A program made the translations under genes and the position numbers. Shown one piece after another: positions 7,972-8,194 of a stretch of 43,420 nucleotides of DNA. Numbering within the stretch: the first letter of the stretch is position 1; the number at the start of each line of letters is the position of its first letter. The stretch is taken from UHGV virus genome UHGV-1685692; one strand, 5' to 3'. Source of the stretch: a virus. The notes below the pieces were generated by a model, which ran no database searches, was not told where the DNA came from, and worked only from the letters and a program-made list of their open reading frames with translations.

Positions 7972-7997
7972 CTGAAAAAAACGCCCACCCGAAGATG
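7972..7997 (-). terminator. intrinsic terminator/attenuator on the minus strand (UUCG tetraloop hairpin plus U-run)
   Basis: Minus-strand RNA GCCCAUC-UUCG-GGUGGGC followed by GUUUUUUU; lies about 180 nt downstream of the C1-operator promoter at 8140-8194. Confidence 0.5.
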
Positions 7998-8139
7998 GGC
8001 AAACTGGAAGCTCGTAACGCACTTCGGTGTTGCCACTTAGGCGTATGGTCAACCTGGCAACTCGGCGTCATGAGGGGGAAGGAGTCACTACCCCGCCATA
8101 CTTGCCGCCGCGCCTGTCGCGGCTAACAGCTAAATCGCT

Positions 8140-8194
8140 CTATAAATCACGATTCATTGAGGCGATATTACACTAATAAATTTATTAGAGCAAT
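8140..8194 (-). promoter_or_regulatory. C1-repressor operator (8178-8194, perfect ATTGCTCTAATAAATTT on the minus strand) overlapping a sigma70-like promoter
   Basis: Minus strand reads TTGCTC (-35, inside the operator), 17-nt spacer, TAATAT (-10); the 17-mer matches the P1 C1 operator consensus as I recall it; the operator also overlaps the dmt stop codon. Confidence 0.65.

Follow-up and report, generated by a model that had tools for sequence, protein, structure and literature searches.

The C1-controlled ban leader of a P1/P7-like phage-plasmid contains a widespread, covariation-supported pseudoknotted RNA element ahead of its terminator

The viral genome UHGV-1685692, a DNA of 43,420 nucleotides (nt) that was analysed at its full length and will be called the window, carries on its minus strand a leader of about 184 nt that starts at a promoter overlapped by operators of the phage repressor C1 and reaches to a strong intrinsic terminator. 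The leader lies between the stop codon of the methyltransferase gene dmt (8185-8187) and the genes for tRNA-Asn and tRNA-Thr (7509-7356), and our main finding concerns its content: most of it is occupied by a conserved RNA of about 123 nt (8013-8135, minus strand), here called the dicF-upstream element, which folds into four helices and a pseudoknot with strong covariation support. The leader is therefore not a generic hairpin-rich spacer, but a member of a covariation-supported family of pseudoknotted RNAs. The window itself is a P1/P7-like phage-plasmid: its 1 kb at 7400-8400 has an identity of 98.2% with phage P7 and of 96.3% with P1, and an Escherichia coli plasmid is 100% identical to a 701-nt stretch of it. 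The operator and the promoter of this locus were already known as Op72ab and P1ban, and part of the leader had already been flagged as “dicF-like”; what is new is the leader content, a widespread RNA family that is undescribed in the sources searched.

The helices follow one another in the window in the order H1 to H4. H1 (CCGCG/CGCGG) spans 8122-8108, H2 (CGGY/RCCG) pairs 8107-8104 with 8066-8063, H3 is a variable hairpin with a C/U-rich loop (8094-8091 with 8078-8075), and H4 (UUGYCA/UGRCAA) pairs 8060-8055 with 8035-8030 and closes a conserved loop of 19 nt. The pseudoknot connects the H2/H3 junction, where its 5′ strand GUAUGG is found (8096-8101), with the interior of the H4 loop, where its 3′ strand CCAUAC is found (8043-8048). 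The conserved loops read AAG(U/C)AUGGC and GGUUGACCAU(A/G)CGCYURAG. The C/U-rich loop of H3 was also considered as an anti-Shine-Dalgarno sequence and set aside, as by eye it offers just a generic 5-nt complement to ribosome-binding sites.

In a model-based alignment of 26 sequences from at least six lineages, 90.9% of the cells are paired, and 20 of the 32 pairs have changed on both sides (82 cells); in H4 all six pairs covary. Sliding the partners out of register gives 31-53% paired, none of 500 shuffles reaches any of the measures, and a MAFFT alignment of 18 sequences gives the same picture. The pseudoknot is paired in 100% of 25 distinct sequences, and one of its pairs covaries (UA in 20, CG in 4, UG in 1): the P7-type allele, to which the window belongs, has GUAUGG/CCAUAC, the P1-type allele and the high-GC lineage have GCAUGG/CCAUGC, and phage F1055 has the U.G intermediate. 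The other five pairs are invariant and were fixed in most of the searches, so that they are uninformative either way. The first-pass annotation of this DNA had remarked on several GC-rich hairpins in the interval and had proposed a check of fold and covariation; the hairpins are real, they are the conserved helices, and covariation supports all four of them together with the pseudoknot.

The element owes its name to its relatives. Positions 8122-8025 of the window are about 82% identical to the stretch that lies 25-120 nt upstream of DicF in the Qin prophage, and in a K-12 strain the match falls between ydfC and dicB of that prophage. DicF itself is recognized by its Rfam model (RF00039, 76.7 bits) at 4122-4173 of locus L003, about 25 nt after the homologous block at 4001-4097. 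Other lambdoid prophages also have the element directly 5′ of DicF. A search of E. coli with a 701-nt query (window 7500-8200) matched at least one part of the query in 4434 of 5426 complete genomes, a count that includes matches to any part of a query spanning both the leader and its downstream flank. Most of the chromosomal matches listed cover query positions 79-176, which correspond to window 8122-8025, at 77-84% identity and usually without any annotated feature, and the genomes often carry matches at several places each.

This homology differs from what the P1 record suggests. In that record (NC_005856 / AF234172) a “dicF-like region” is annotated at 68791-68892, roughly window 8070-7969, without structure, terminator or function; the conserved element begins about 65 nt further upstream, and it is the flank 5′ of DicF, rather than DicF, that shows the homology. 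The leader as a DicF small RNA (sRNA) is ruled out, as the RF00039 model has no match in 7400-8300 even at E values up to 10, whereas a search of the same kind recognizes DicF in Qin. Nor does any other Rfam family match the element, whether in the whole window at the gathering threshold or in 7400-8300 at E up to 10, where the only notable weak match is that of tmRNA_permuted to a tag region further downstream, which is discussed below. The element is likewise unmentioned in the DicF papers that were read and in the other papers searched. Another phage RNA, the svsR sRNA of prophage NC-SV, is unrelated and lies in the 3′ end of cI.

The members were gathered by pattern scans of viral contigs, by BLAST of phages and plasmids, and with a covariance model, R1. 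This model finds the element of the window at 8135-8013 over its full length (107 bits, E 7e-38, the window sequence being part of the seed alignment), and independent members score 40-140 bits. A weak match at 12405-12538 on the minus strand (9.6 bits, E 0.21) is probably due to chance. Six groups can be told apart: lambdoid phages and prophages; P1-like plasmids, whose copies form two haplotypes plus rarer forms; an Actinobacillus phage with a Salmonella phage; the AT-rich contig L406; the contig L016; and a high-GC group (L382, L390, L397 and L411) together with L393.

The settings in which these copies stand are repetitive. In lambdoid genomes the element is on the strand of cI or dicA, in a PL-type early operon where the repressor gene precedes it by a few hundred nt, and in phage Ayreon a promoter is annotated about 300 nt upstream of it. 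In the high-GC group it follows an XRE-like open reading frame (ORF), in L016 it is flanked by a recT-like gene and a replication gene, and in the P1-like copies some 23 nt separate it from the predicted start of transcription at the C1-controlled promoter. The plasmid of E. marmotae (L374, NZ_CP099353) has it after a terminator-like hairpin, with no adjacent operator or promoter. A search for loci related to L016 with its replication protein returned only that protein itself. In every class of downstream sequence but that of L016, among copies selected by pattern, the element is followed at 47-95 nt by a hairpin and a U-run, and these classes comprise DicF, some nine further tails from lambdoid genomes, and the leader of the P1-like copies. 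In L393 (1598-1757) a divergent element is followed by a perfect match to the abiF RNA motif (Rfam RF03085, 61 bits), which constitutes the hairpin and U-run. The leader of P1 and P7 thus has the usual layout of the family, with a tail and a terminator of its own; in lambdoid prophages DicF, or another small RNA that ends at a terminator, stands in their stead.

The closest comparison is with the Qin dicF locus (ydfABC-dicF-dicB), whose 97 nt ending about 25 nt before DicF are those that resemble the element at the identity given above, and which shares with the leader the order of element, short single-stranded stretch, terminator hairpin and U-run, the P1-like tail sitting where the single-stranded 5′ part of DicF sits. 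It differs in that the tail of P1 and P7 is unrelated to DicF, and in that the element of P1 and P7 is promoter-proximal, whereas that of Qin comes after three small ORFs.

Upstream of the element, the anatomy agrees with that annotated in P1 and P7. Operator a (Op72a or Oban-a), the 17-mer ATTGCTCTAATAAATTT, is found with no mismatch at 8178-8194 on the minus strand, as the first-pass annotation had stated, and overlaps both the -35 hexamer and the stop codon of dmt, which lies inside it. Operator b (Op72b) is inverted, with two mismatches, at 8167-8183 on the plus strand, and overlaps operator a and the -10 region. The P1 record names the site as the divalent operator Obanab (formerly Op72ab), with the sigma-70 promoter P1ban and a predicted P2ban, and the P7 record annotates the same operators. 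P1ban occupies 8165-8193 on the minus strand, with the -35 hexamer TTGCTC (8193-8188) inside operator a, a spacer of 17 nt, the -10 hexamer TAATAT (8170-8165) overlapping operator b, and a predicted start near 8158; with such an overlap, the binding of C1 would occlude the promoter. The same hexamers and spacing had been described as a good sigma-70 promoter, and they are indeed present in a homologue of P1ban, although “good” overstates what can be read from the letters: they agree with the consensus at 7 of 12 positions only, which is why a consensus promoter scan did not call it. Sites for C1 with up to three mismatches number five in the window, against 0.34 expected, and none of 100 shuffles reaches five. 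The three further sites, with one mismatch each, are at 11454-11470, 27542-27558 and 29213-29229 (minus strand). The last of them is a short distance 5′ of the region in which Rfam models find the C4 antisense RNA (28946-29031) together with its a1/b1 targets (29100-29152).

From the predicted start, the leader begins with an A/U-rich stretch (8136-8158) that is identical in P1, in P7-like genomes and in SJ46, continues with the element, then with a tail or linker containing a weak hairpin, GAAGU...GCUUC (8001-8029), and ends with the terminator (7975-8000), all on the minus strand. The terminator has the stem GCCCAUC/GGUGGGC (8000-7994 and 7989-7983), a UUCG loop and seven U (7981-7975); its 7-bp stem is made of five G-C, one A-U and one G.U pair, a terminator scan finds it and extends the stem to eight pairs, the hairpin energy is -12.8 kcal/mol, and it is the sole strong terminator-like site of the minus strand in the scanned region 2500-8250, from the promoter to past the third tRNA gene. 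In the minimum-energy and centroid folds predicted for the full leader the terminator hairpin is free, without competing pairing. Considered as a capped acceptor stem, with a G.U pair near position 3:70, the same hairpin has no discriminator or CCA and no equivalent in lambdoid relatives, and this idea was rejected. The only sizeable ORF, of 47 amino acids (8071-7928), is not conserved, the P1-type allele lacking an ATG where its start aligns.

In this way the earlier reading of the locus is partly upheld. Its anatomy was right, with an operator over a promoter, a strong UUCG/U7 terminator some 180 nt downstream, and no credible ORF between them. Its tRNA-plp-ban operon has to be corrected, as plp is not on the leader transcript; in P1 the genes plp and upl are on the opposite strand. 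Of the two functions it had offered, that of a discrete small RNA made on the release of C1 fits the findings, with the termination and the stability of the RNA being predicted, and that of an attenuator is taken up below.

We accordingly propose, with a confidence that is appreciable if somewhat short of even, that the leader is a cassette of structured RNA and terminator, which on derepression would give a discrete RNA of about 184 nt together with read-through to the tRNAs and ban. Once the operator is free of C1, the element would be transcribed by RNA polymerase from P1ban; a large share of the transcripts would end at the UUCG/U7 terminator, producing a discrete structured RNA that might be trimmed further, as RNase E trims DicF; and the remaining transcripts would read through into a transfer-messenger RNA (tmRNA)-like module, the tRNAs and ban. 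No promoter-like site was found by scanning between the terminator and about 4300, an interval that covers three tRNA genes, and so expression of what lies downstream would need this read-through. Phage promoters with a strong intrinsic terminator within about 200 nt, giving a short RNA unless there is read-through, are familiar from the 6S RNA of lambda PR′ and from StxS of Stx phages; there, however, the promoter is late and read-through depends on the Q protein, whereas P1ban is early and C1-repressed, and the sequences are not related. We know of no protein antiterminator for the P1ban leader. DicF offers a precedent: early Rho-independent termination within its operon generates the 3′ end, and cleavage by RNase E generates the 5′ end (PMC9438474, PMC5069750).

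Several observations weigh against the cassette. The tail varies among P1-like plasmids, with 4-nt insertions in two of them and a 10-nt deletion in that of E. marmotae, which argues against a conserved base-pairing seed like that of DicF; the element core differs in the same plasmids mainly by paired, compensatory changes and in H3, and this conservation points to the element, rather than to a seed, as the functional part. The hairpin could belong to the module downstream of it, because phage D6 (L129) and a related plasmid have no element and retain, at 91-93% identity, the hairpin with its U-run and all that follows. In the divergent copy L016 the element stands directly before the replication gene with no terminator, and in the high-GC group some 250 nt of additional sequence, alike in the members seen, come between it and a terminator-like hairpin. 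There the element makes up the 5′ portion of some 370 nt of non-coding sequence without Rfam match, present in four members (for example L411 4418-4880) and flanked by the XRE-like ORF and an ORF of 357 amino acids. The terminator is, then, not an obligatory partner of the element. Finally, the literature that could be searched gave neither transcript nor 3′-end data for the leader. In the E. marmotae plasmid, which together with D6 is a natural recombinant, the pairing of the terminator stem is kept by the variant GCCCACC/GGUGGGU.

A different function for the element would be that of a processive antiterminator acting in cis, in the manner of the put sites of HK022 or of nut sites, which would let RNA polymerase read through the UUCG/U7 terminator and the tRNA/tmRNA-like array as far as ban and, in lambdoid prophages, past DicF-type terminators to dicB or kil. 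We consider this unlikely, though well worth retaining, for the location of the element agrees with it: most of the copies examined are in early operons near a repressor gene or a repressor-controlled promoter (the lambdoid PL-type operons, Pban, the high-GC group and L016), and in P1 a strong terminator precedes downstream genes for which no internal promoter was found. The PL operon of Ayreon points the same way, since it has an annotated internal terminator and yet no N protein recognizable by Pfam among the five ORFs tested. The lambdoid copies also have, some 12 nt ahead of H1, the sequence UGCUCU(C)UU, which we take to be boxA-like; it is missing from the P1-like copies, and this counts against the idea. 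Against it also stand the E. marmotae plasmid, whose element follows another terminator with neither operator nor promoter adjacent, and Qin, where a terminated DicF of 53 nt is made downstream of the element (PMC9438474), so that antitermination there would be at most partial.

The comparison with HK022 itself gives a similar balance. There putL and putR are structured two-arm RNAs of about 70-120 nt in repressor-controlled early operons, upstream of the terminators that have to be passed, and put RNA alone is able to act in this way (PMC9378689). However, they consist of two stems with a triplex, whereas the element has four helices with a loop-junction pseudoknot, and antitermination by the element is a prediction only. 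The putL of HK022 shares just the 9-mer GCGCGGCGG with the element, and R1 has no match in the HK022 immunity region; this lack of similarity in sequence or model rules out that the element is a homologue of put. The broader proposal that the element constitutes a new class of phage RNA, put-like and protein-independent, whether as a processive antiterminator or as an anti-Rho device, is in our view slightly less likely still.

The possibility raised by D6 can be formulated more strongly, in that the hairpin at 8000-7983 would be mainly a structural or processing stem at the 5′ boundary of the downstream tmRNA-like/tRNA array instead of the end of a leader RNA, and two independent non-coding modules would have been juxtaposed by recombination. 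The region is clearly mosaic, and the lambdoid locus L004 also has a hairpin directly 5′ of its tag module, in agreement with this idea and with the arrangement of D6. Nevertheless, in most lambdoid loci of the tag family another repeat unit, and not this hairpin, comes before the tag module, a GC stem with UUCG and U7 is a canonical terminator, and nearly all the other copies of the element also precede a hairpin and a U-run, and for this explanation we have little expectation.

Less expectation again is placed on the idea that the tail and the terminator are an Hfq-dependent base-pairing sRNA like DicF, cut by RNase E, with the element as nothing other than a scaffold for processing or stabilization. 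The position relative to the element is that of DicF, and U7 is preceded by UUU, which we take to resemble an Hfq-binding module; in a P1vir transcriptome study, moreover, ban and trnA are reported as over-induced at 20 min in an hfq mutant (bioRxiv 10.64898/2025.12.28.696737), an observation that is indirect. However, the DicF model finds no match here, as already seen, and the combination of a variable tail with a conserved core is the opposite of what a seed-bearing sRNA predicts. An informal look, by eye, for a DicF-type seed gave no convincing pairing with the ftsZ leader.

The least probable of these readings, and very improbable in our judgment, is the one that would make of the leader a conditional attenuator or riboswitch, in which the element would sense a ligand, a protein or another signal, toggle the terminator, and thereby gate the operon of the tRNAs and ban after derepression. 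The element combines a highly conserved pseudoknotted fold and invariant nucleotides in its loops with a position ahead of an intrinsic terminator, and this is indeed the general layout of transcriptional riboswitches. However, the predicted folds contain no alternative pairing of the element with either strand of the terminator. The downstream terminators, moreover, differ completely among phages that share the element, and their distance from it varies (47-95 nt), which is hard to reconcile with an expression platform that must overlap its sensor; because they are non-homologous and variably spaced, a ligand-sensing attenuator is unlikely. L016 has no terminator at all, and no Rfam riboswitch matches even at E up to 10. 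The attenuator suggested by the first-pass annotation thus finds no support.

P1 and P7 have another structured RNA at the 5′ end of a C1-controlled operon, the C4 antisense RNA of the immI leader (RF01695), which is in this respect similar to the element. It is unrelated in sequence and in fold, and its targets are the known a1 and b1, whereas no complementary target was identified for the element.

Directly after the terminator, the minus strand carries a module similar to the mRNA-like part of tmRNAs (7794-7970), in which a hairpin, a UAAAU context, a tag ORF (7913-7881), a helix and an H-type pseudoknot follow one another. The tag ORF reads UAAAU-GCA AAC GAU GAU CUG AUG AUG GUA GCG GCC UAA, that is, ANDDLMMVAA* in 10 codons; it begins at a GCA resume codon and ends in a hydrophobic stretch, AA and a stop. 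The Rfam model tmRNA_permuted gives 24 bits here (E 0.009, the gathering score being 47) and aligns through the tag region only. The family has further members in many viral contigs and, in a lambdoid prophage, beyond the Q antiterminator gene; their tags are ANDDLMLMAA, ANDDVVLMAA, ANDEQFLAVA, ANDDQFLAVA, ANDDLMLAAA and ANDDLMMAAA. The 16 nucleotide versions of the family encode seven peptides, all of 10 codons, the differences within a peptide are all synonymous, and the frame of the tag peptide seems to be subject to purifying selection. Eight codons before the tag there is an in-frame UAG, and no AUG, GUG or UUG start codon stands between the two. The preceding hairpin and the UAAAUGCAAACGAUGA context recur in genuine permuted tmRNAs of other viral contigs; ARAGORN reports no tmRNA in the window or in 10 related loci, and no tRNA-like domain was found for the tag family of P1 and the lambdoid phages. 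In the P1-like contig L201 (1010-2340), the tag module is interrupted by an insertion of about 1.3 kb between GGTTTAG and AAACTGACC, some 25 nt ahead of the tag, with a long ORF that resembles, by appearance and with no domain search run, a TnpB of the IS200/IS605 type.

As permuted tmRNAs place their acceptor piece about 270 nt before the tag, the element was also considered as such an acceptor piece or tRNA-like domain. This is ruled out, as neither a T-arm nor an acceptor stem nor a conserved CCA is present in it. In lambdoid phages the element is in the early-left, PL-type region and the tag module is downstream of the Q gene, and no copy of the element was found in the lambdoid tag loci searched.

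The DNA around the tag module is an array of long imperfect hairpins (CACAACAGGUAAGAGCA ... UGCUCUUUCCGUUGUG) with tRNA-like inserts, found in the window at 7355-6540 on the minus strand and also in L004 (3900-4420) and L127 (3400-3800). Its units have the form CACAACAGGTAAG(A/G)GCA ... TGCTCTT(T/A)CCGTTGTG, often followed by GTGAATGCGCAGGCTGATGCGCG, and the inserts are tRNA-like, with the T-arm-like sequences GGGTTCGAATCCC or GGGTTCATATCCC. In lambdoid phages such units flank the dicF-upstream element, the DicF-type sRNAs, the tRNAs and the tag module, and the array hairpins may be processing punctuation. Their 3′ strand resembles boxA. One insert ends, at 6608-6598 on the minus strand, in a sequence (CAGGUCCACCA / CAGGTCCACCA) identical to the acceptor 3′ strand and ACCA of a genuine permuted phage tmRNA (L240); the matching 5′ acceptor strand was not found for this insert. 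Between the non-coding array and the third tRNA gene (5280-5355), the minus-strand region 5383-6427 contains an ORF of 275 amino acids with a lipoprotein-like N-terminus and a hydrophobic ORF of 78 amino acids. For the 435-nt terB of P7, inspection by eye gave no counterpart of the same size at the corresponding place in the window.

The dicF-upstream element is among the commonest unannotated structured RNAs in E. coli genomes, and it adjoins the much-studied DicF and sits in P1, where it bears on the old question of how the Op72 operon, with ban, the tRNAs and its other genes, is expressed in spite of a strong terminator close to the promoter. The tag module, if functional, would imply a phage take on trans-translation. 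If the put-like reading of the element were true, about four in five complete E. coli genomes would carry copies of such a device, and this would explain both how P1 reaches ban past the terminator and some 2.5 kb of untranslated structured RNA, and how lambdoid prophages without N pass the DicF terminator to dicB.

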